Numbered from the stretch's first letter, positions 5,722-49,786 are shown. The stretch is DNA of 64,000 bases from Alphaproteobacteria bacterium (GCA_965243135.1 OZ251539.1:3296001-3360000), one strand, 5' to 3'. Program-made: numbers and translations. The notes: generated by a model from the letters alone, not told the origin.

Positions 5722-6300
5722 CTAGCCGTCGCCGCTTTCCGCGAACCGGAGCTGCCGCGCGCGCGTCAGGATCCGGTCTTCCAGCTTGGTCGCCGTCTCG
5801 GGATCCACCGTCGCGTCCCGCCAGGCGACGGTCCCGTCGGCGTCTTTCACCCTGTTCTGGCGAAACACGGAAACGCGCACGCCGTCGGACCGGAGTTGCC
5901 GGGCCAGGATAAAGACGTTCACCTTGAGGCGTTCGTCCGGCGTCGACGGCGGCGAATACCAGTCGGTAATGATCACGCCGCCGAACGGATCCGCGGAGGC
6001 GAGCGGCACGAAGGACATGGTGTCGAGGGTTGCGCGCCACAGGTAGCCGTTCACGCCGATGCCGCCGCCGCCTTCGTCGCTCTTGCTTCCGCCGCCCAGC
6101 GCTCCGATGAGGTCGACGCCGTCCCCGCCGAACACGGTGCTCCTGTCGTCGCTGGGGTAATTCTTGCCCGCGCTTCCCGGGGGCGGCGTGGCCGGATCCT
6201 TGTGCGGCGGCACTCCGCCCTCGCAACCCGCGAGCGCCAGCGCGGACAGCGCCGCCAGCGCGGACAGCCCGCTCCCCCGCTTTACTGTTCGTATCGGCAT
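5722..6300 (-). CDS. DUF3576 family lipoprotein
   Basis: LAGC lipobox; GVNGYLWRATLDTMSFVPLASADPFGGVIITDWY; typical upstream neighbour of alphaproteobacterial leuS. Confidence 0.88.
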   Translation of the reverse strand: MPIRTVKRGSGLSALAALSALALAGCEGGVPPHKDPATPPPGSAGKNYPSDDRSTVFGGDGVDLIGALGGGSKSDEGGGGIGVNGYLWRATLDTMSFVPLASADPFGGVIITDWYSPPSTPDERLKVNVFILARQLRSDGVRVSVFRQNRVKDADGTVAWRDATVDPETATKLEDRILTRARQLRFAESGDG

Positions 6301-9614: not shown

Positions 9615-10894
9615 GCGTTGACGACGACGCCGCGGCGCGCCTGCGCGACTTGTGGGCGCGCCTCGCGGAAAGCGGCACGGTGCCTACCGATCTTGAGCTC
9701 GCCTCCCACAGCTTGCCGAATTACTCGGTCGCGGTCGAGCCTTGGATGGACCGGCTGGCGAAGCGCTATCTCCAGGACCTTTGCCGCAGAAACTCCCACT
9801 TCAAACTGGTTATCGCGCCTTACGGCGGCGGGAAGACCCATTTTTTGATTGAACTCGGAAATCGGGCGCGCAAGGAAGACTTCGCCGTTTCTTACGTTCC
9901 ATGCAGCGCGGATACGAATCTGGAAGACGGGTTGGAACTGTACAAGGAATCGGTGAAGAAACTGTGGCTTCCGGGCGAAACGGAATCAGGATTGCGACGT
10001 TTTCTCGGCGCGACGATCAAGAGAAAGCGCACTCAAATCTCCAGTCGCGAAGTCCCCGATGAAGCGTTGGCGTTCGACCGCTGGCTCCATACCGTGGAAC
10101 GGACGCAATACGAAGAGAACGCTTTCGGGCGCGTCATGGCGGCGGCGCTGCGGGGCGTGGACGAACCGTCGCAGCTTGGCGAAGCCGCTTTTCGGTGGTT
10201 GCAGGGCGATCCCGACACTCTCGGGCGAAGCGAACTGGAGGGGCTTGGTCTCGCGAGAATAAGCGCGAAGGACAAGAAGAAATTCGGAAGGAACATGCTT
10301 CTCTCGATGGCGAAATTTCTTCCGGAAGCAGGTCCTTACGGCTGGGTCTTGCTGATCGACGAGGTTGAAACCCTTTTCACCGCAAGAGGCAAGTCGTTGC
10401 TGCGCGTGCTCGCCGCGATGAGAATACTGGTGGACATTCAGGGAGTTCCTCTGCTGGGGACGTTCGCCGCCGTTCCCGACATCATGGAGCAAATCAGACT
10501 ATATGAAGCCCTTCGGGGCAGACTTTCGGTTATCGGCGCGGCCTTCGATCAAGGCAACGATCTTGCCGTCCAACTGCATCTGGACAAGATGGACAAACAA
10601 GAGAAGCTGCTCGCGGATATCGGACGTAGATTGATTCAAGTCGGAAGCCAGGCGAAAGGGGTTTCTTTCGACGCCGAATTGCAATCGTCCAACGCGGAGA
10701 ATCTGGCTCAAGTCGCGGCGGACCGGAATCTCGACGTGGATGCGCGACGGCTATACGTCAAGACATGGGTGAGCTTGCTCGAAGAACAGAGCGAGAAGGA
10801 ACAGCGGAGGTTCGAAAATCAGGAGCTATCGGAACGTTACCAAGGCGCTTTCGATTCGCTTCGCGCTTCCGAGAGCGACGATTTCGAACCATGA
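9611..10894 (+). CDS. DUF2791/BrxD-like P-loop ATPase 2
   Basis: ATGA overlap; Walker A APYGGGKTHFL, RWLQG, Walker B VLLIDEVE, YEALRGRL. Confidence 0.8.
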   Translation: MSVDDDAAARLRDLWARLAESGTVPTDLELASHSLPNYSVAVEPWMDRLAKRYLQDLCRRNSHFKLVIAPYGGGKTHFLIELGNRARKEDFAVSYVPCSADTNLEDGLELYKESVKKLWLPGETESGLRRFLGATIKRKRTQISSREVPDEALAFDRWLHTVERTQYEENAFGRVMAAALRGVDEPSQLGEAAFRWLQGDPDTLGRSELEGLGLARISAKDKKKFGRNMLLSMAKFLPEAGPYGWVLLIDEVETLFTARGKSLLRVLAAMRILVDIQGVPLLGTFAAVPDIMEQIRLYEALRGRLSVIGAAFDQGNDLAVQLHLDKMDKQEKLLADIGRRLIQVGSQAKGVSFDAELQSSNAENLAQVAADRNLDVDARRLYVKTWVSLLEEQSEKEQRRFENQELSERYQGAFDSLRASESDDFEP

Positions 10895-39943: not shown

Positions 39944-41812
39944 TCAATCGAATCTGGATAGTGTTTTAATTTTTTCTACGACCAGATCTGCTCGCCTACG
40001 GATGAATTTGTTATATCTTTGCTCGACGTTGCCGTCAGCTCGCATTGCATCGTAAGGAACGAGATGCGCTTCGACTCGGCGCTTTATTTCTTGCTCTCCT
40101 ATGTTTTGTTCAGTGAGAATCTCGTTTAGATATTCATTCGGATCCCTCTTCGAAAATTTCCGATTTGTGCGGCTGTCTAGCAATACTCCGTTCAGCCCGT
40201 GCTGAATTCGTTTTTTGTCGTTTATACCACTGCGTTTGAGAAAATCCATAGGAAAAACATGATGCCGATCAAGTGCACGACTGTCTTCGAGTTCTCGAAT
40301 TTTGGCAGCATCTAATCCATTTCCGATTATCCAACCAGGCGGTGAATCGGAAAGAACCGCTGTCAAAATTGCCCGTCCCAATCGCCCTTTGGCACCAATC
40401 CATGGTACCTCCTTTCCAAGATCTCCAGCCTCCGGCAACGGGTATTCTGCGTCGCGAAATACCTCTGGCATTCGGGTAGGGTTTCCACGCTCCGCTATTT
40501 CTCGCAAACAGACCAATAGTTGCTGATAGTCTTCCAGAACTCGGTCGTTCGCTTGCATTTCGTGTCTATTTGTAAACAAACATCGCCAGTAATAGGCATC
40601 TAGAAGTCTGTGGGCGGTGCCTTGTCGTGCCGGATCTGTGATCTGAACAGTGGCCTCTCGTAACGCGGCGAGGACGTGCAGCGGTGGCCAGCTCGGCAAT
40701 GTTCCTATTGTTGGCGCACCATGTCTCGACGCAAATTCCAAGGCGTGCTTGAGGTCCTCAAATACGCTGCTTAGATTGGCGAGACCCTGCGGGGTTCCCG
40801 TTGGCGCCAGCGACTCCAGCGCGTATTCGTAGTTCGATTCCTTTGGAGGTTTCATTGCCTTCAGGCATGCGACCTTTAACATCCATACCCCGATATCCGG
40901 TATCCAATCGTCTTCATTGCGCCCGAAATAGTACTGGAAAATCTCGTTTTCATTATATGCGGCTCGTATACGATCCCGAAGGCTTTCATCGTAAGTACCT
41001 CGGGCGATTGCCACAACGATGTCGAATCGTTTAATTGGGGCCGACGAACTGTTTGTCTCGATGAAAATATCAACGGCAACATCGATGGTGGTTTGCTCCG
41101 GCAGACTGCAATACCAAAGATTTGTTTTGAACAGGAGCGGTTCTCGCAACTGTGCGTTTATCGCCTTATCTAAAAGCGATACCGGTGCCGCATCTCCGTC
41201 ACCAAATGCTTCATGGCACCAGTTCCATATTTTTCCGAGATCCTCAGGATCTTTTTCTGCATCCCATAGAATATCCGTCGGCAAATAGTTATCGGAAAAA
41301 GCGTTTTGGGGAATCGCCAATCGCTTGCCTTTTGCAGTATTTTGTCGAACCGGCTCGACTTCCTGTACAGCGAGATTTCGATTTTGAAAGTCGTCTACTT
41401 TAATGTAGAAACGATAGTCACTATCATCGGGAAATTTTAGGAGTGCGTGCCAAAGCGAAGTAAGGCGTTGCTGGCCATCAAGCACGAGTTCCGTAACTTG
41501 TCTAGGTCTCCGATTCATACCGCTGAACATTCGGGAATCAAACTGTGGTTCCTCCGCGCTACGTAGGATCAGCATTATTCCCGTTGGCCTGGTTTGCAGT
41601 AAAGCCAACAGATAGTTTGCTGTTTTTTGAGGCGACCAGGTCCAGCTACGCTGAAATTCCGGCAACGCCAGTCGGCCTTCTTCTGCCATTTTTAGCCATG
41701 TCTCAATGTTTCGATGTTCGTACCGAACAACATCATCTGTTGTCACGTTAATCCTCCTGAATTCTTCCTGAGATTTCTGCGACACGGTACCGTAGTTGAT
41801 TCCACGCCACAC
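39944..41812 (-). CDS. DUF262 (GmrS/SspE-like) domain protein with C-terminal HNH/DUF1524-like motif
   Basis: LPEFQRSWTW, VLDGQQRLTSL, IFIETN; C-terminal DRHHVFP..NGVLL..TNR; visibly low GC. Confidence 0.85.
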   Translation of the reverse strand: MWRGINYGTVSQKSQEEFRRINVTTDDVVRYEHRNIETWLKMAEEGRLALPEFQRSWTWSPQKTANYLLALLQTRPTGIMLILRSAEEPQFDSRMFSGMNRRPRQVTELVLDGQQRLTSLWHALLKFPDDSDYRFYIKVDDFQNRNLAVQEVEPVRQNTAKGKRLAIPQNAFSDNYLPTDILWDAEKDPEDLGKIWNWCHEAFGDGDAAPVSLLDKAINAQLREPLLFKTNLWYCSLPEQTTIDVAVDIFIETNSSSAPIKRFDIVVAIARGTYDESLRDRIRAAYNENEIFQYYFGRNEDDWIPDIGVWMLKVACLKAMKPPKESNYEYALESLAPTGTPQGLANLSSVFEDLKHALEFASRHGAPTIGTLPSWPPLHVLAALREATVQITDPARQGTAHRLLDAYYWRCLFTNRHEMQANDRVLEDYQQLLVCLREIAERGNPTRMPEVFRDAEYPLPEAGDLGKEVPWIGAKGRLGRAILTAVLSDSPPGWIIGNGLDAAKIRELEDSRALDRHHVFPMDFLKRSGINDKKRIQHGLNGVLLDSRTNRKFSKRDPNEYLNEILTEQNIGEQEIKRRVEAHLVPYDAMRADGNVEQRYNKFIRRRADLVVEKIKTLSRFD

Positions 41813-41844: not shown

Positions 41845-42726
41845 TTATGGATCAGTATCGAGAATGGAATCGATAATCTTCTCCGTCATTTGGCGCACCT
41901 CCACAAAATCAAGAACACCGAGTTCTCGGGAACCTCCGACGAAACACAGTGCATGACAGACGTCTTGGACTAGTCTTGACGGTGGTGGCTTTTCGTCCGG
42001 TGATTGCGGAAGCAGACGCATCAAACCCACGGCTGCTGCGTCTTGGACAAGGCTAGTTCCGAAAACCGGACTTCTCGAAACCATTACCGAAACGAATTCT
42101 ACCCAGTGATTCTTCGATTGCCGGAGCAATTCGCCAATTTGGGCTTTGGGTAGACCGGACCTTTGTTCGGCGCTGCGGAGCACCCGCTCCCGCCACCATG
42201 CTCGCGCAAACGGGCAGTCGGCGAGAACGCTTCTATTGCCCCTCTGCGGTAAACCACCCAGTTGCCGAATGACCGAGCGGACACATTTGTCCATTTGTAT
42301 CTCCGCATTAGTCCCGGTTTTCCTCATCAACACCCGGTCGATGCGTTCCGCTCCTGTCTGGGATGAAATGCCGTTGCTCGCGAGATAGGTTGGCTCTATG
42401 CGGCCGGACCGTACATGTTCCATGGTAGCGTTCGTCCAGAACGACGTGCTTGACGCAACCTTTGGTGGAAGATTCTTCCACAATTCGTACATCTTGACCT
42501 CGGTAGAGCACGGTGGACTCTTGAATTGCGCTTCGCTGAGCCGAACTGGGTAAAGCTCCATGGCGGTATCGCCTACCACAGGTATCCGGTCGATTTCGGC
42601 GATGAAGCCATCGCCGTCCTTCAGCGCCCTCAGGAATTTTTCCTGCTCGGCACCGCCCTTAACGCTCAGGATGTCTTCGCGGAAGGATGACCACTCCGCG
42701 TCGTCCAACCGCTTCCAGTCAGTCAT
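41845..42726 (-). CDS. Hypothetical protein (weakly DUF6339-like), island-2 operon gene 5
   Basis: Overlaps the upstream gene; LPPKVAS..FWT..H and FARAWW resemble the 'W..L.H / SRLWW' pattern from memory. Confidence 0.75.
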   Translation of the reverse strand: MTDWKRLDDAEWSSFREDILSVKGGAEQEKFLRALKDGDGFIAEIDRIPVVGDTAMELYPVRLSEAQFKSPPCSTEVKMYELWKNLPPKVASSTSFWTNATMEHVRSGRIEPTYLASNGISSQTGAERIDRVLMRKTGTNAEIQMDKCVRSVIRQLGGLPQRGNRSVLADCPFARAWWRERVLRSAEQRSGLPKAQIGELLRQSKNHWVEFVSVMVSRSPVFGTSLVQDAAAVGLMRLLPQSPDEKPPPSRLVQDVCHALCFVGGSRELGVLDFVEVRQMTEKIIDSILDTDP

Positions 42727-43588
42727 CTTCTTCTATAGCGATCGCAGGCAAAACATGAGGGTGGAGCAGAGTTGCAGCTCTTTCGGGATTGAACTCCTCT
42801 CCGGCACTCCAGTCGCAGCAGCCCTCGGCGGCAAGAATGGACGCGAGCGTTTCGAGTTCCTTGTACGCACGCCAGCCATCATCTCCGTCGTCTACTGGAT
42901 ATTTCCGTTGAAGTGCGGCGAAACAGGATGTCACGACGTGCGTCATTATATCGGCGCGGCGTGCCCGATGCTCGCCCCGCCCCTGAAGCAAGCTGTGAAG
43001 ATCGGGGTGACAGCGCACATCGAAGCGGAACGTGGGGTCGCCGTCGATGGCTTTCGTGTAAAACTGGCCGACGACAAGCGTGTCGTCGGCACGGATATAA
43101 ATCAGACTTTGAATGCCGGAGGCACCGAGCCGTAGCACGGGTCCCAGTGCTAGCCAGGCACCTTTCGGAAACGTCGCCTCGATACGATCCCAATCTGGAT
43201 GAACATCATCCTCTTCGGACTTTAGGATATGATGTACATCTTCTATGCAAACGATCATCGGAGTGAAATACGGCGGATCGCCAAAATTCGCTCGATCCCA
43301 CGCAACCTCCTGGGTCGCATTGTCGGAGCGTAGTACTTCTCGATAAGCGGAACGGGGGGCGGCGAGCGCACAGGCATAGACGGCTTTCTTTCCCAAGATC
43401 AGATTTTCTACCAAACGCGCCCGTTCTACCTTGTGACGCAATTTGAATCGCGAGGTGTCGGAGCCAGCGTGTTCAGTTTCGATCAGATAGTCTCCATCCG
43501 GGAAAGAATCGTTGCCCTCCTCGATTACCGGATAATCGCGAGCAACAATGGCATTCGCCGGAACACCGCCCTTGGCTCGTATTATCAT
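42719..43588 (-). CDS. Hypothetical protein, island-2 operon gene 4
   Basis: ATGA overlap with the GHKL gene; N-terminal YPVIEEGNDSFPDGDY. Confidence 0.78.
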   Translation of the reverse strand: MIIRAKGGVPANAIVARDYPVIEEGNDSFPDGDYLIETEHAGSDTSRFKLRHKVERARLVENLILGKKAVYACALAAPRSAYREVLRSDNATQEVAWDRANFGDPPYFTPMIVCIEDVHHILKSEEDDVHPDWDRIEATFPKGAWLALGPVLRLGASGIQSLIYIRADDTLVVGQFYTKAIDGDPTFRFDVRCHPDLHSLLQGRGEHRARRADIMTHVVTSCFAALQRKYPVDDGDDGWRAYKELETLASILAAEGCCDWSAGEEFNPERAATLLHPHVLPAIAIEEDD

Positions 43589-45534
43589 TCCGACTGTTCT
43601 CCGCCTTCGGCATTCAGCCGATATGCGCCGATCTCAATGCGCAGACTGGCATCCGGCAGAACCGGGACGGCGTCGCCATCAAGAGCGTATTCCACCATGA
43701 CCTCGGTCGTCGTTCCTTTCTCAAGACGTCCGAGTCGAATGGCGGGGTATGGTGTGATTACGACCCTTTCCGGCGGAACCGGTACGCCGCTGATTTTGGC
43801 GCTCCTTATGCCGGCCAGTCTGTCGGGCCAAATTCGATCGGTCGTGACATCTGTCCGATCATCTACGATCAGCCGGAGCTCCAGGTCATCGCAGGTCTCG
43901 GTGCAGCGAATCTTGATTCGTTTGCTATCCTGGCCAGCAGGCGTGACGACCGCTGTGAAGTTCGAAGGCAACGCTGGCCTTCGTGCGGATTGATCGCGTT
44001 GGCCGTTCTTGCCGGATCCGCCGCTTGCCTCGCCGTTGCCGCCGGAACGTCCAGCGCCGGGATTGGTGCCGACAGAGCGTTGCATGGAAATGCGCCGATG
44101 TATGGGGGTAACGATTCCGCGATAGTCCCAGCCGTATCTCGGGCCAGAGGGGTTTTCGGTGCTGTCGGTAAAAGCCAAGAAATCGGAGGGATTGTAAGGC
44201 TCGTCGGAAAATATCGGTATTTCGTTCCGAAAAAATTCGATGACGTCATCGAATGCCTTGTTGAGCTGCTTTCGATCTTCGGGCGTCAGGTGTTTGGGTT
44301 CGAGCCCGTTGTGCGACGGTCCCTCGGCCTTCCTTATCAGGTCGTGAAACTCGGGAGCCGTCTCCGCGGCGACCAGAATCAACGCCTCGAAGGCTTCATG
44401 ATTCGAAAGGGTGGCATGAAGGCGTGGAATGCCGCCACGGTCGCTTGTAACCCACATGCCGTTTCGGAAAAGGTTGACACGCATTGTTCCCGAACTGGCG
44501 GGATGCTGAACGACGATTTTCACTGTTCCGTCCAGTACGTCCACATCGCGGCAGGTGCCGCGCACAAGAGCGTTGTATGAAAAATACGCTTTCTCGCCGG
44601 AAATATAGCCTCCACGGACTCGTTTGCGTTGCTTGCAGCGGCCGAGCGCTTCGTCCAGACTCCCGCGGTTGAGGGTCCATGACGTATCGCCGTCGTCCAC
44701 GATGACTTCGAGCCGTTCTTCCTCGACCGCAGGAAAGAAGCTGCAGACGGCCGCTTCCGATACGGCGTCCTTCAAGCAAATCTTTTCCTTGAACCGGTTG
44801 AATGCGGGTACGATGACGGCCGTTCCATGCTCGTAACTGCATTCGATTTCGGACAGAGCTTTTCTAATCAATGGCGGCAATTCATCCTTATCAAGATAAA
44901 GGTGTTCCCGACCATCGTTCCCGGCCAGATAGTATCCGTTAGCGCTGCGTCCAATTTTATCTCTTTGATCCTCATCGTGAGACGCCAAAATCGCATGCCC
45001 GCTTCCAATCCACTGCTTATTGCATATCCCGCCGTACAGGACGTATCTGAGATCGGAAAGCGGCAGGACCGACAAATGACCGACGCCGAACGCGCCGACG
45101 GCATGCTTTCCTTTATTTGCGGCGCCGTCCGCAAGAAGAGCGTTCATCCGTTCCTCGTCGAGACCGACGCCATTGTCGGTGACGACCAGTACATCCTGTA
45201 GATCTCGCTCGAGGGCCTTGCTGATCGCGTCGACAACCATCTTTTCCTGGTCGCTGAGGCCCGTTTTGGCCTCCCGTCTCTTTTTGGCCTTCTTGAAGGC
45301 GGATCTATAGCTGCTGATCCCGGGTATAGCTTTGGTCTTCACCTGCGTCGTTGAAAATCGAACGACGGCTTTGGAGACTTGAGCCTCTTGGGCGGCGTCG
45401 AGCGAATTCTGGATCAGTTCCCTTACGATTACATTGGCGCCTGTATCCCGGAAGCTGGAGATACCCGCAGCGACAAATCCAACCGCTTCGGCTGAAGTCA
45501 GAAACGTCAACCTCGGGTGCGGATACTTGTTCAT
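43585..45534 (-). CDS. GHKL (HATPase_c / MutL-MORC-like) ATPase domain protein
   Basis: Bergerat-fold motifs RELIQNSLDA, VTDNGVGL, GAFGVG, GTAV; Gly-rich linker before the C-terminal domain. Confidence 0.82.
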   Translation of the reverse strand: MNKYPHPRLTFLTSAEAVGFVAAGISSFRDTGANVIVRELIQNSLDAAQEAQVSKAVVRFSTTQVKTKAIPGISSYRSAFKKAKKRREAKTGLSDQEKMVVDAISKALERDLQDVLVVTDNGVGLDEERMNALLADGAANKGKHAVGAFGVGHLSVLPLSDLRYVLYGGICNKQWIGSGHAILASHDEDQRDKIGRSANGYYLAGNDGREHLYLDKDELPPLIRKALSEIECSYEHGTAVIVPAFNRFKEKICLKDAVSEAAVCSFFPAVEEERLEVIVDDGDTSWTLNRGSLDEALGRCKQRKRVRGGYISGEKAYFSYNALVRGTCRDVDVLDGTVKIVVQHPASSGTMRVNLFRNGMWVTSDRGGIPRLHATLSNHEAFEALILVAAETAPEFHDLIRKAEGPSHNGLEPKHLTPEDRKQLNKAFDDVIEFFRNEIPIFSDEPYNPSDFLAFTDSTENPSGPRYGWDYRGIVTPIHRRISMQRSVGTNPGAGRSGGNGEASGGSGKNGQRDQSARRPALPSNFTAVVTPAGQDSKRIKIRCTETCDDLELRLIVDDRTDVTTDRIWPDRLAGIRSAKISGVPVPPERVVITPYPAIRLGRLEKGTTTEVMVEYALDGDAVPVLPDASLRIEIGAYRLNAEGGEQSE

Positions 45535-46673
45535 ACGCCCTCTCCAAGTCTCCGAAACGCTTTTGCCGCTGCCGAGACGTCATCCTCGGTCGTGAAACGC
45601 CCCAAACTGATGCGCACCCCTTGCAGAGCTTCAGTCGGAGAATATCCAAGGGCGGAAAGCACATGAGAAGGAGAGGCGCCTTGGGAGGAACAGGCCGAAC
45701 CGGTCGATACCGCCACGCTTTCCCGCAGCCGTTCCGCCACGGCGTCGCCCGACAGGTCGGGGAACGAGACGTTGAGATTTCCCGGAACGCGCAACCGTTC
45801 GTGACCGTTGAGGCGAATCCCCGGCACGGCTTCGGATAACGAACACCAGAGGATTCCGGTCAGTTCCCGAATCCTCGCCGAATTGGTCTCCATCTCTTCG
45901 ACCGCGATTTCGCAGGCCTTTCCGAAGCCCATGGCGAGATGCACCGGGACCGTGCCGGAACGAAGGCCCCGTTCCTGTCCGCCGCCGGCGACCATCGGCG
46001 CAAGCCGTTCGAACGCCTCCTCCCGAACGTAGAGCGCGCCGATTCCCATCGGGCCGTACATCTTGTGGGACGACAGCGACAACAGGTCCACGCCGAGCGC
46101 GTCAACATCGACCGCCATGCGGCCTGCCGCCTGCGTGGCGTCCGTGTGCATCAACGCGCCGTTGTCATGGGCTATCGCGGCGACTTCGGAAACCGGCTGA
46201 ACGACTCCGATCTCGTTGTTGACCAGCATGACGGAAACCACTGCCGTCCGGCCGGACACCGCCCGCCGCAGTTCGGCGAGATCCACGATGCCGTCGGGGC
46301 CGACCCCGACGATGCGAGTTCGACCGCCCCCGTCGGCAATGGCGCGAACGGATTCCAGGACGGCCGGGTGTTCGGTCGCCAGCGTAACGATTTCGTCCCG
46401 GTCCCCGCCGGGTCCGACCGCGCCCCTTACCGCAATATTGCAGGACTCCGTCGCGCCGGAGGTCAGAATCACTTCGTCGTCGCCTGCGCCGAGAAGGGAC
46501 GCGATCTTCGCGCGGGCGGACGTCACCGCCCTCGCGGCGGACCAACCGTACGCATGATGGACGGAGTGAGGATTCCCGAACCGCTCGCCCAGATACGGCG
46601 CCATCTCTTCCCGAACGCGGGAATCGAGCGGAGTCGTCGCCTGATAGTCCATGTATACCGGAGCGGACGTCAT
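45531..46673 (-). CDS. Cysteine desulfurase (IscS/DndA/SspA-like, group I)
   Basis: MDYQATTP, TSGATES, EHPAV, NNEIG, HTDATQ, SSHKMYGP (PLP Lys), STGSACSS (catalytic Cys); TGATG overlap with the upstream gene. Confidence 0.93.
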   Translation of the reverse strand: MTSAPVYMDYQATTPLDSRVREEMAPYLGERFGNPHSVHHAYGWSAARAVTSARAKIASLLGAGDDEVILTSGATESCNIAVRGAVGPGGDRDEIVTLATEHPAVLESVRAIADGGGRTRIVGVGPDGIVDLAELRRAVSGRTAVVSVMLVNNEIGVVQPVSEVAAIAHDNGALMHTDATQAAGRMAVDVDALGVDLLSLSSHKMYGPMGIGALYVREEAFERLAPMVAGGGQERGLRSGTVPVHLAMGFGKACEIAVEEMETNSARIRELTGILWCSLSEAVPGIRLNGHERLRVPGNLNVSFPDLSGDAVAERLRESVAVSTGSACSSQGASPSHVLSALGYSPTEALQGVRISLGRFTTEDDVSAAAKAFRRLGEGV

Positions 46674-48085
46674 CAGTCCGTGCAGTCGCACGGCAACGTC
46701 GCCGCAGCCTCCCTGAACGCTTTGGCTCCCCGTTCGGCAATTCTCCGATAGGTCAGGCCCTTGCTGTCCCGACCGAAAAATCCGACGAAGCCCTCGGCGC
46801 CGCGGCCTTCCGCGTCGAGATCGCGCGTGTACTCCTTCTCGATGCGCGCCCACCAGTCGATGTCCATCGGCGTGTCGCGCTCGTCTTCCCGCTCGCCGGA
46901 CATGCGATCCTCGCAAATGCTCTTGTAGATGCCCGCGAGGTTCGACGTCCCCTTGAGAAAGCAGTACACGCAGTTGGAGAGGTGCCCGGACGCCGGAAGC
47001 CGGAGTTCCATGCCGGGATTGAGCTCCCAGAACGCGTTGACGTCGGCCCTCTCCACGCGCATGTCCGACAGCGGCATGTAGACGTGTTCGCCCTCGTATC
47101 CCTGCGCTTCCGGACCGCCCGCCCTTCTCGCCTCGACGCGCTGCACCCTGTTCTGTTCGTCGTACCTCAGCCCGATGAACGCGACGTATTCGACGCCGCC
47201 GGATCCGAATGCGGCGTTTCCGCCGTACGCATTCCCGGAAAGCGAGGGGTTGTCCGCCTTCAGAGGAGCGGCCGAGTAATCCTCGTAGCGCTGCTCCGGC
47301 CGGTGCACTGGACGAGACAGAACGAACGCCTTCTTTCGCAGAAAGATATCCTTCGGAACCTTGCCCCTGTTTCGCCTGTGGCGCCGGTACAGGGCTTCGC
47401 CTTCCACCTGCGGCATCTCCTCCCAGTGGCCCAGATGCGGGATTCCTTCCTTGCAGGCCAGCCAATCGCGAAGAAACATGCGGGTGACTTCAAGCTTGAG
47501 CGCCTTCGTGCATATCCTGCGAAACTGATTGGGGACGTAGCCGGACCACGACAGCAGTTCCTCGAAAGGTTCGCCACGGCAGCTGTATCCGTTCGGATTT
47601 GCCCCGGACCGCGGTTCGGCATTGACCAGACGGTAGGAGCCGAGGCGCGTCCATTCCCCGTTCCGCGCGTCTTCGTAGGTCTGGTACTCGACCAAAAAGA
47701 ACGGGATGCCATAGCGCGACTCGGCCAGACGCTTGCACTTGGCGACGAACTCGTAGGTCGCGGGATGCTCGGCGGCGGTATTGTTGAAAAGGACGACGTC
47801 GCCCCGGCGCGCATCCAGAATGCCGTTCTCCAAAAGGGTGAACAGGAGCATTCCGCTTGACCGCCCGCCGGAGAACTTCACGACATGCGGGAGGTCCCGA
47901 TGCTGCTTGCTACGATATCGGAAGCTCAGCCCGCACGGGGGGGGGGGGGGGGGGGAATTCCGAGAAACCAGAAGCTTCGGCGCGCCGACCACGGCTTCCG
48001 GCAGGTCGTCGACAACGGGCAGCGATGTTTCCGGACGGATCCCGCCCCGCGTCGCACGGTCGCGAAGATGCAGGTTCAGCGTCAT
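46673..48085 (-). CDS. PP-loop / PAPS-reductase-like protein (DndC/SspD-related fold) with Cys clusters
   Basis: VVKFSGGRSSG PP-loop, NTAAEH..TYEF, RICTKALK, IGLRYDE..R, SNCVYCFLKG, C-terminal PCDCTD. Confidence 0.85.
   Translation of the reverse strand: MTLNLHLRDRATRGGIRPETSLPVVDDLPEAVVGAPKLLVSRNSPPPPPPCGLSFRYRSKQHRDLPHVVKFSGGRSSGMLLFTLLENGILDARRGDVVLFNNTAAEHPATYEFVAKCKRLAESRYGIPFFLVEYQTYEDARNGEWTRLGSYRLVNAEPRSGANPNGYSCRGEPFEELLSWSGYVPNQFRRICTKALKLEVTRMFLRDWLACKEGIPHLGHWEEMPQVEGEALYRRHRRNRGKVPKDIFLRKKAFVLSRPVHRPEQRYEDYSAAPLKADNPSLSGNAYGGNAAFGSGGVEYVAFIGLRYDEQNRVQRVEARRAGGPEAQGYEGEHVYMPLSDMRVERADVNAFWELNPGMELRLPASGHLSNCVYCFLKGTSNLAGIYKSICEDRMSGEREDERDTPMDIDWWARIEKEYTRDLDAEGRGAEGFVGFFGRDSKGLTYRRIAERGAKAFREAAATLPCDCTD
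47937..47955 (-). repeat. Homopolymer G19 (C19 on the coding strand) in the 5' part of the PP-loop gene
   Basis: ccgcac-G19-aattc; encodes SPPPPPP and is currently in frame. Confidence 0.9.
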
Positions 48086-48091
48086 GGTGCC

Positions 48092-48120
48092 ATATTAGCC
48101 GCCATCGATCCGTTTGTCAA
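48092..48120 (-). promoter_or_regulatory. Near-consensus sigma70 promoter, leaderless, for the island-2 operon
   Basis: Minus strand reads TTGACA-17 nt-TAATAT-6 nt-ATG(48085). Confidence 0.7.
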
Positions 48121-48338
48121 TAGGGCGCGCGAGAAATAACGTCGCGAGCCGCCATTGGGCGAAAGCGTTCTCGCGCAACGGCGGCGGAAAGGTGCGTCCC
48201 GACGGCCGCTGACAGAGTTTCGGGCCGGCGTCCGGGCGCTCGCCAAACCTGTCGATTCCACCGCCCTTCGAAACCGGGCAGAGCCGCTGCCTCTCATCTC
48301 AACCGCGCTACGCTCCGTCAACCGGCTCGACACGCCGT

Positions 48339-49247
48339 CTACATGACTCGTCCCGACAGGTCGATTTCGGGAGGCCGGAACACATGCTTCGCATGCCACG
48401 CGACGAACTTCGGCTTCGGGGCGGCCTCCGCCGTTGCGGGCATCAGTATTCTTCCGCCGTCCAGCGGACTAAGCCGTCGGACGGCGTCGCCCTGGTCGCC
48501 CACCGTCCTCGACACCATCACGCTGAAACCCTCCGCCTCTGGCCTCAGACCGAACGCGCCACGGTCGAACGCGGCATGATGCAGGACGCAAAGCGCCAAC
48601 CCGTTCGAGACGAAGTCGGGGCCCTTCTGCACGCGCCATTGAATATGCGCGGCGTCGAGGCCGATGGTTTCGTCGCGCATGCGAAGCCCGTAGCCGCAGA
48701 CCGCGCAGCGATGCCCGTAGGCTTCGAGAACCTCTCCGCGAAAATCGTCGTTCGCCGGCTTGTCGAGAAGGCTATCGACGGAAACGAGGGTCGCTCTCAG
48801 AATGTCCTCGTGTAGCGACGGCGGAAAGTGCCTGTCGAGAAGCAGCCTCGCCGCCTGCCATGCGAGGCCGGGCTTCATCTGCAACAGCTGGAATATGTGC
48901 TTCGGGAAACCGCCTCGCACGCCTCGTTCAATCAGCGCGTTCCGATTGAGAGTTCCCCAGCTTCCGGCAGGAAGTCCTTTGCCATCCGGTATTTCCCAGA
49001 GTTCGTCCTTGCGCAGGAAGCCGAACGGAGCTTCGGGATATTGTGTCTCGGCAGGCCGACCGAAACGATCAAGCAAACCGGCAAGCGGGCCTTGTAGTTC
49101 CTTGAACGTCGCAAGACGAGGGTATCCCGCAAGGACCCGTCCGAAAGCCAGCAACAGCAGCAGAGGCTTGTGGGGCGCACGATAACCGTTCGTGACCCGA
49201 ACCTTGATCCCTTCGACCTGCTTGAGAAAATGTTCGTCGTCGTTCAT
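48339..49247 (-). CDS. HNH endonuclease with N-terminal SBD-like (phosphorothioate-binding type) domain
   Basis: RAPHKPLLLL..PEAPFGFL..DELW N-domain; CAVCG..DAAHI..GPD..SNGLALCVLHHAAFDRG HNH domain. Confidence 0.8.
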   Translation of the reverse strand: MNDDEHFLKQVEGIKVRVTNGYRAPHKPLLLLLAFGRVLAGYPRLATFKELQGPLAGLLDRFGRPAETQYPEAPFGFLRKDELWEIPDGKGLPAGSWGTLNRNALIERGVRGGFPKHIFQLLQMKPGLAWQAARLLLDRHFPPSLHEDILRATLVSVDSLLDKPANDDFRGEVLEAYGHRCAVCGYGLRMRDETIGLDAAHIQWRVQKGPDFVSNGLALCVLHHAAFDRGAFGLRPEAEGFSVMVSRTVGDQGDAVRRLSPLDGGRILMPATAEAAPKPKFVAWHAKHVFRPPEIDLSGRVM

Positions 49248-49253
49248 GAGCGG

Positions 49254-49281
49254 AAACGAACTCCTGCAAACGAACTCCTGC
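49254..49281 (-). repeat. Perfect 14-bp tandem duplication containing the Shine-Dalgarno of the HNH gene
   Basis: Minus strand: gcAGGAGttcgttt twice, then ccgctc ATG. Confidence 0.7.
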
Positions 49282-49786
49282 GCACCGGAATCCGTTGCAG
49301 CATACAGGTCATTGCGGGCTTCCGGTATAGGCACCCGGCGTGCGGCCGACCGGATTTTGGAACGAGCGAAAAATAACCCCGCCGAATAACCCGCGACGAT
49401 ATCCGCAACCGCTTCGTCCGGTTGGAGCGGCGGACGACCTCCCCGGAACCCCGCAGCATGAGGCGCCGCGACTTCTCCCGGGCCGGCCAAGCGCAAGAGC
49501 AGGGAACCCTCCGCCGACGGCGTGGTTCGGCGGTTGCGAGAGCGGTTGCCGGACTTCGGCGAGCGCTTCGGTTACGACAACAAGCCGTGGATAGCCACTC
49601 GACGGGGGAGACCGGCAAAACTCTCGACGAAGGCGAAGCCATGGTTCGGGCTGCAAGCGGATCCAGGAATTCCGGCGTGCTTCGGCGTGACCCGCGCCTC
49701 CCCTCGGCGGCGCGTCCCGTCGAGCCGCCGGCGCGCAAGGCGGCGCCTGCCGAAATGTTCGAACGGGACGTCGACGGCTCCCGGCT

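Follow-up and report, generated by a model that had tools for sequence, protein, structure and literature searches.

A 64,000-nucleotide (nt) stretch of an alphaproteobacterial genome (GCA_965243135.1, OZ251539.1:3296001-3360000; "the window" below, by whose numbering positions are given) carries on its minus strand a conserved cassette of genes suggestive of sulfur chemistry, and the first gene of this cassette contains an uninterrupted run of 19 cytosines (C19). We analyzed this run as a candidate slippage switch. The gene, designated P0001, and the elements that fix the position of the tract within it are:

46673..48085, minus strand: P0001, first gene of the cassette, encoding a 470-residue (470-aa) divergent PAPS-reductase-like PP-loop protein (SGGRSS motif; homologues)
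47937..47955, minus strand: C19 homopolymer (G19 on the plus strand), the proposed slippage switch, at codons 44-50 of the PP-loop gene
47963..47980, minus strand: PKLLVS (residues 36-41), a conserved N-terminal motif on the 5' side of the tract (homologue alignment)
47855..47872, minus strand: SGGRSS (residues 72-77), the P-loop motif of the PP-loop protein, on the 3' side of the tract (sequence motif; alignment)
48092..48120, minus strand: sigma-70-like promoter TTGACA-17-TAATAT in a leaderless-type arrangement (motif scan)

The C tract and its reading frame

On the minus strand the tract reads ...CGGAATT-C19-GTGCGGG..., with the run at 47955..47937, and it supplies codons 44-50 of the 470-codon open reading frame (ORF): TCC, five CCC and CCG, encoding Ser followed by six Pro (S PPPPPP). 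The SGGRSS motif begins 21 codons downstream, in keeping with the preliminary description of this DNA, which had placed a 19-nt tract about 44 codons into the PP-loop gene and ahead of that motif. No other G/C run in the window is longer than 6 nt, the longest A/T runs are 7 nt, and an independent-base model predicts 4.6e-5 runs of at least 19 nt in 64 kb. Because the Pro codons of the tract are five CCC and one CCG, though CCG is the preferred Pro codon of the locus (85/175 across its seven genes; CCC accounts for 34/169 Pro codons outside the tract), the tract appears to be a nucleotide repeat: a pure C run fits such a repeat, and not a selected protein motif. A role as a promoter spacer was rejected for C19, which lies 130 nt inside the ORF.

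The preliminary description took the tract to be coding on the strength of a leaderless promoter that fixes the start at ATG 48085. A promoter-like site is present: TTGACA-17-TAATAT matches the consensus at 10 of 12 positions, ends 6 nt before this ATG, and occurs once against 0.1 expected in shuffled sequences, and the reading frame of P0001 opens just three codons upstream of the ATG. Homology is nevertheless the better ground for taking the tract as coding. The family comprises 1758 homologues at E≤0.001 among 8000 candidates scored, with members typically 450-480 aa long, and our alignment contains 27 of the homologues of P0001. Upstream of the tract position, the motif PKL(V/L)VS is kept in the same frame as ATG 48085, with P36 invariant (27/27); downstream, FRYR(S/A)K.H..LPHVVKFSGGRSS is conserved and stands in one frame with the PKLVVS motif in all 27 aligned homologues. 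Since PKLLVS is conserved upstream of the tract, the frame begins before it. GC content by codon position upstream of the tract is 0.77/0.47/0.72. From the tract to V68 no in-frame ATG, GTG or TTG occurs, and the GTG of V68 is itself the single in-frame start codon that the stretch from the tract to M79 offers. We rejected V68 as a normal start: only three residues would be left before the P-loop, and no Shine-Dalgarno-like sequence was noticed ahead of it. Sequence conservation thus confirms, on firmer ground than the promoter, that C19 lies in coding sequence and that translation begins upstream of it.

Between the PKLVVS and FRYR motifs, the homologues differ in the length of a linker, often rich in Pro; in P0001 the Pro run is this linker. 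In the AlphaFold model of P0001 (mean predicted local distance difference test score, pLDDT, 66.9; predicted template modeling score, pTM, 0.71), strands are predicted at residues 38-40 and 53-55, with the tract forming a lower-confidence loop between them (pLDDT 56); this predicted position would explain a tolerance of five to seven Pro residues.

The consequences of a change in length were evaluated by rebuilding the gene in silico with tracts of 14 to 23 nt. Three of these ten lengths (C16, C19 and C22) yield the full protein, at 469-471 aa, while the other seven run into a stop codon 1 to 6 codons past the tract and end at 51-59 aa, in every case before the P-loop. We then compared lengths among public sequencing runs, using assembled contigs of unknown library type aligned to 46600-49600. 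A contig of run X10 (record 1, 4101 nt) covers all 3 kb with no substitutions and has a tract of 18 nt; a contig of run X12 (record 12, 964 nt), also without substitutions, has a tract of 17 nt. Another contig of X12 terminates within the tract, and the contigs of runs X13 and X14 stop at or beside it. Runs X1-X9, which carry metagenome and sponge-metagenome labels (shares 0.07-0.38), stood outside this comparison, and we base no statement on habitat or strain on them. Otherwise identical DNA is therefore represented by tracts of 19 (the assembly), 18 (X10) and 17 nt (X12), as read from contigs and not from reads, and the lengths 18 and 17 are OFF. These differences among assemblies are suggestive of a variable tract.

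The cassette in this and other genomes

The remaining genes of the cassette follow P0001 on the same strand, and a nuclease gene precedes it:

45531..46673, minus strand: cysteine desulfurase, SspA/DndA/IscS-like (PADLOC, Pfam)
43585..45534, minus strand: 649-aa sacsin/HSP90 (GHKL)-type ATPase, PDC-M33A-like (PADLOC, NCBIfam)
42719..43588, minus strand: 289-aa protein, PDC-M33B-like (PADLOC, 2.3e-9)
41845..42726, minus strand: 293-aa protein with a weak DUF6339 match (Pfam, 1.3e-3, below cut-off), fifth gene of the conserved cassette
39944..41812, minus strand: candidate nuclease partner of 622 aa, with GmrSD/DUF262 as its N-terminal domain (Pfam GmrSD_N, 8.4e-15)
48339..49496, minus strand: phosphorothioated-DNA-binding HNH restriction endonuclease of ScoMcrA type (NCBIfam NF045808)

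All cassette genes are intact in the window, and the first five overlap from stop to start: at the first junction, TGATG, the PP-loop stop codon and the desulfurase ATG have one base in common, ATGA overlaps join the desulfurase to the ATPase and the ATPase to the PDC-M33B-like gene, and the latter overlaps the DUF6339-like gene by 8 nt.

The PADLOC matches of P0001 are weak (SspD, 1.3e-5, residues 178-211; BrxP, 2.8e-4), it has no Pfam match at E≤0.01 and no PDB match by protein sequence or by profile, and a Foldseek search with its model returned nothing at E≤0.001. In the VIA-align comparison of the same model (mean pLDDT 66.9), the top 12 rows are all of PP-loop/PAPS-reductase type (Z 8.0-8.8, 148-194 residues aligned) and include PAPS/APS reductases, CysD, GMP synthetase and NcsA, consistent with a PP-loop fold; the language-model look-alikes of P0001 are PAPS_reduct clusters (0.94). 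In the 27-member alignment, the P-loop region VVKFSGGRSS has S72, G74, S76 and S77 invariant (27/27), forming an SGGxDS-type motif after a beta-strand, and Cys 192, 372, 375, 466 and 468 are invariant as well. The desulfurase matches SspA (8.3e-136) and DndA (4.6e-135) in PADLOC and Aminotran_5 in Pfam (4.8e-78); against TIGR03235 it scores 371.9 bits, under the cut-off of 480, and the IscS and NifS models score similarly. The ATPase matches PDC-M33A (PADLOC, 1.1e-31) and the sacsin P-loop domain (NCBIfam, 4.3e-8), so that PDC-M33A and PDC-M33B, components of the PADLOC candidate system PDC-M33, are matched on adjacent genes. No methyltransferase family was matched in the cassette by Pfam, PADLOC or NCBIfam, and P0001, a PP-loop/PAPS-reductase-like protein, is by its class not the DNA methyltransferase that a phasevarion requires.

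The HNH nuclease gene is intact and lies 253 nt upstream on the same strand (NF045808, 3.2e-75, 252.9 bits against a cut-off of 180). It stands outside the conserved cassette, with a homologue nearby in 2 of the 71 other loci described below. Its position beside a possible writer of DNA sulfur marks might set up a self-targeting conflict or make the nuclease a partner of the ON/OFF states.

We found the cassette at 71 loci from species-representative genomes, some of them cut by locus ends. These loci span many phyla, and nearly all belong to metagenome-assembled genomes (MAGs), some with sponge-type names. The core genes are the PP-loop gene (71 loci), the desulfurase (67), the ATPase (67), the PDC-M33B-like gene (62) and the DUF6339-like gene (58); the GmrSD_N/DUF262 gene is present at 18/71 within the flanks available. 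A long G/C tract in the same N-terminal linker as C19 was seen at one of the 71: there the PP-loop gene of L067, from a Bryobacterales MAG, has a C31 tract (5964-5994) that is out of frame with its ATG. Other tracts lie elsewhere in the cassette. In L064, from a Parvibaculaceae MAG, C24 (7378-7401) begins at codon 2 of the desulfurase and is out of frame, and in L061 a G19 tract (10241-10259) lies where the PDC-M33B-like gene ends, 6 nt short of the ATG that opens the DUF6339-like gene. The comparison of orthologues that had been proposed earlier thus supplies, in unrelated MAGs, one tract in the corresponding linker and two at other sites. Shorter runs were also observed: in the short-read MAG locus L036 (7929-7938) the conserved GGGQE motif of the desulfurase is coded by G10 instead of G9, producing a frameshift; L022 has an intergenic C10, and L010 a C12 about 280 nt upstream of the start. 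Long tracts are widespread, across many phyla, in the genomes that bear the cassette: 62/71 have at least one G/C tract of at least 12 nt, and 23/71 have at least 20 such tracts, with a maximum of 82 in 3.6 Mb.

Tracts of at least 12 nt were also seen in 25 of 60 relatives of the host genome, where a few complete genomes have 23-91. In three relatives with fragmented assemblies (G043, G057 and G059), many poly-C/G matches lie within ~100 nt of contig ends or are tightly clustered; this pattern looks like a sequencing artefact, and such matches are best kept out of tract counts. A search of the 60 relatives with P0001 found just distant PAPS-reductase-like paralogues of 310-360 aa and no close orthologue, and a scan of JGI metagenome contigs found 12 loci at 52-59% identity, none of them close. 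The 90% cluster of P0001 contains six other proteins from six contigs, all of 392 aa and all called from M79, after the P-loop. These six relatives (91-92% identity) each differ from P0001 by 31-34 substitutions, none of which falls in the 119 family-invariant columns, and their 392-codon frames are intact to the same C-terminus as P0001. Judged by this pattern of substitution, the gene behind the repeat appears to be kept functional in the six relatives, and not to be decaying. Their uncallable 5' ends could be explained in two ways, by a tract that is out of frame or by an assembly that breaks at a tract.

Genome-wide tracts and the proposed switch

The host genome is a single contig (C1) of 6.10 Mb with 65% GC, in which the window is C1:3296001-3360000. 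It contains 55 G/C runs of at least 10 nt, with lengths of 10-21 nt, compared with 0.35 extrapolated from lengths 4-8, over which the counts drop about 7-fold per added base; the overall length distribution is bimodal. No A/T run exceeds 10 nt. Six of the 55 tracts are 19-21 nt long, so that the earlier statement that C19 is by far the longest homopolymer is true for the window and misleading for the genome.

We scanned the ORFs at 28 of the 55 tracts for known families. Restriction-modification or defense genes account for 7/28 of the tract-associated ORFs scanned, hence for at least seven genome-wide:

G17 tract: Mrr_cat+ResIII gene
G11 and C17 tracts: two Type ISP enzymes
G18 tract: N6_N4 methylase
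C14 and C16 tracts: two MmeI/Eco57I-like (Type IIG) methylases
G15 tract: DUF1156 antiphage protein

One further tract-bearing gene encodes a family-2 glycosyltransferase. At least 13 tracts lie at or just before the starts of ORFs longer than 850 codons, with third-position GC of 0.80-0.95; 12 of these giant tract-associated ORFs have no Pfam match in their first 800 residues, three of the 12 have none in NCBIfam either, and one further giant ORF matches He_PIG and Calx-beta. By analogy, this repertoire of tract-bearing genes is that of classic contingency loci.

Two other settings of G/C tracts were observed in the genome. C tracts occupy promoter-like spacers at C1:2208758, 3781408, 3154251, 230426 and 3806182, examples being TTAACT-t-C14-ggc-TATACT, a C13 paralogue of the TTAACT-type site, and TTGACC-g-C18-gcg-TATGGT; two of these tracts precede small NHase_alpha-like ORFs, and they look like transcriptional, not translational, switches. 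In addition, a six-copy element (C1 419006, 448899, 477004, 5407825, 5425744 and 5759341) repeats the same flanks on either side of a poly-G of 12-18 nt. At L119 (121-1083), the copy examined, the tract supplies codons 3-7 of a transposase gene of ISKra4-like type (NF033572, 1.2e-13, below cut-off), and expression of the element's transposase may depend on tract length.

We consider it probable that C19 is a hypermutable contingency tract that acts as a slippage ON/OFF switch on the PP-loop gene and its cassette, as the preliminary description had suggested; the truncation at off-frame lengths and the lengths of 17, 18 and 19 nt in three assemblies, at the level of contigs, support this reading. 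Slipped-strand mispairing during replication would alter the length of C19. Lengths of 16, 19 and 22 would keep the frame and give a full PP-loop enzyme with a loop of five to seven Pro (ON), while at other lengths translation would end after 51-59 residues, before the ATP-binding P-loop, leaving the enzyme OFF. Because each of the four following genes has its start on or inside the stop codon of the gene before it, early termination would lower their expression as well, through lost translational coupling and exposed untranslated mRNA, and the whole cassette, most plausibly a sulfur-based DNA-marking defense module, would toggle. The polarity proposed earlier is plausible from the gene overlaps; the effect itself we infer, together with the rate and reversibility of switching and the role of the cassette.

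Several observations weigh against this reading or qualify it. The lengths of 17 and 18 nt come from de Bruijn contigs, and homopolymer error in contigs or in the assembly could give plus or minus 1-2 nt. Because such error is possible, the ON state that had been assigned to the tract holds for the gene as assembled and is not secure for the organism. The 392-aa calls in the close relatives may reflect contigs breaking at the tract instead of an OFF frame. The tract in L061, at the 3' end of its gene, would not switch that gene off. Across the 71 genomes, tracts of at least 12 nt fall within cassettes 4 times against 1.9-2.5 expected by random placement (P 0.13-0.24); the cassette is thus a target of such tracts but, the excess being not significant, not a demonstrably preferred one. 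C19 itself is one of 55 tracts in its genome and not a singular feature. MutS and MutL are present, giving no general mutator background, and no RNA run contains this stretch.

These observations have to be set beside other accounts of the tract. One holds that the tract is real but effectively fixed as a Pro-rich linker, the lengths of 17, 18 and 19 nt being homopolymer errors of sequencing or assembly. The calling of lengths from contigs alone, the Pro-rich linkers of homologues at the same place and the presence of MutS and MutL speak for this account; however, a linker selected for its Pro residues would be written in the preferred codon, CCG (85/175), and not as a pure C run, 55 long G/C tracts without an A/T counterpart point to a process at the nucleotide level, and neither the out-of-frame tracts of 24 and 31 nt in orthologous cassettes nor the lack of a callable 5' end in 6/6 close relatives fits a fixed linker. 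We regard it as unlikely.

The tract might instead tune the operon without any frameshift, either by ribosome stalling at six Pro residues (with dependence on the elongation factor EF-P) or by a G-quadruplex/i-motif on the template strand. Poly-Pro can stall ribosomes, the ON allele does encode PPPPPP, and a G19 run on the template strand is in principle capable of folding. Such an effect would leave the out-of-frame tracts of L064 and L067 and the contigs with 17 and 18 nt unexplained, and many of the genome's tracts are non-coding or lie in promoter spacers, which makes it quite improbable as the function of C19, although a mechanism of this kind and a slippage switch are not mutually exclusive.

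A further account has the cassette being lost by pseudogenization, with the tract as a mutational hot spot and not as a maintained reversible switch. It appears very improbable: the calling of 6/6 close relatives without N-terminus and P-loop, the out-of-frame tracts of L064 and L067 and the G10 frameshift in the L036 desulfurase would agree with decay, but the 392-codon frames of the six relatives are intact with no change at the 119 invariant columns, and in the window the cassette genes are all intact and the assembly is in frame. An assembly or sequencing artefact, with no long tract in the organism, is scarcely credible, for although poly-G occurs solely at contig ends in some relatives' short-read assemblies (G043, G057), where it is a known artefact of two-color chemistry, C19 is internal and in frame with conserved coding sequence on both flanks, and contigs of two other runs (X10 and X12) span it.

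Known systems and implications

Phase variation of restriction-modification genes by homopolymer tracts is a general mechanism (PMC12707154, PMC6435447, PMC8355987, PMC5084427). As in the slippage switch proposed here, the tracts of pathogen restriction-modification genes (Type III mod and Type IIG genes of Helicobacter, Campylobacter, Neisseria and Haemophilus) are G/C runs in the 5' coding region with frame-dependent ON/OFF states and many loci per genome. C19 differs in lying in a gene for a PP-loop sulfur-type enzyme instead of a methyltransferase, and in its host, which has 65% GC, relatives that are mostly uncultivated MAGs (some with sponge-type names), and both MutS and MutL. The tracts differ in length as well: those of pathogens are typically 8-13 nt, while they reach 21 nt in the host genome and 31 nt in L067. 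A high-GC parallel is the Pgl system of Streptomyces coelicolor (BREX type 2), an anti-phage DNA-modification system in which pglX is toggled by a G run; Pgl is a methylation system at a single locus, in contrast to the sulfur-type cassette and genome-wide tract family described here. Bedford 1995 and Sumby & Smith are among the references listed in PMC12839542. In Bordetella, poly-C tracts lie in the promoters of fim genes, and tracts occur in both promoter spacers and ORFs, as in the host genome, though in different gene classes and with no link to a DNA-modification cassette. This high-GC proteobacterium has dozens of C/G homopolymeric tracts (PMC1891110).

With the SspABCD-SspE and DndABCDE systems the cassette shares a DndA/SspA-like desulfurase beside a PAPS-reductase-like PP-loop protein with conserved cysteines. 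SspE is a DUF262-type nuclease, and here too a DUF262-type protein stands at the end of the operon, while a phosphorothioate-dependent nuclease adjoins the cassette. Among the seven proteins of the locus, no PADLOC Dnd model other than DndA found a match (no DndC, no DndD SMC-like ATPase, no DndE), and neither did SspB, SspC or SspE, the last gene having just the GmrSD_N/DUF262 domain. Unlike in Dnd and Ssp, a GHKL/sacsin-type ATPase and two uncharacterized proteins (a PDC-M33-like trio) take the place of the DndD/SspC-type ATPase, DndE and SspB. Classified by its gene content, the cassette is neither a Dnd nor an Ssp system, and a sulfur mark on DNA is its most plausible function.

The preliminary description knew of no comparable switch in phosphorothioate-type systems. 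This agrees with the relevant passage of a 2018 review, according to which simple sequence repeats are absent from dnd genes and their promoters (PMC6435447), and where a 2025 review of restriction-modification takes up phase variation, it does so for methyltransferases only (PMC12707154). In the literature covered, that outside subscription journals, we found no report of repeat-mediated switching in phosphorothioation-type systems, and none of genome-wide G/C tracts in sponge symbionts or cassette-bearing genomes.

For the annotation of such genomes the tracts have a practical consequence: because short-read assemblies break and reading frames shift at long G/C tracts, defense-gene calls in MAGs are distorted, as illustrated by the six close relatives of P0001, 6/6 of which are called without the catalytic N-terminus.

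Phosphorothioate marks are partial and heterogeneous. A repeat switch on a sulfur-type cassette would be the first genetic ON/OFF mechanism for such DNA marks, and with it contingency loci, a hallmark of host-adapted pathogens, would extend to high-GC environmental symbionts. We advance more tentatively, as a possibility that we hold to be doubtful on present evidence, the broader view that a DNA-sulfur (phosphorothioate-like) epigenetic mark is itself phase-variable. Slippage in C19 would then divide a population into cells with and cells without the mark and, with the adjacent phosphorothioate-dependent HNH nuclease, each state would restrict DNA or phage from the other. In this view the locus would exemplify a convergent strategy of uncultivated and probably sponge-associated bacteria, belonging to many phyla, that would carry dozens of very long G/C tracts on defense and surface genes.

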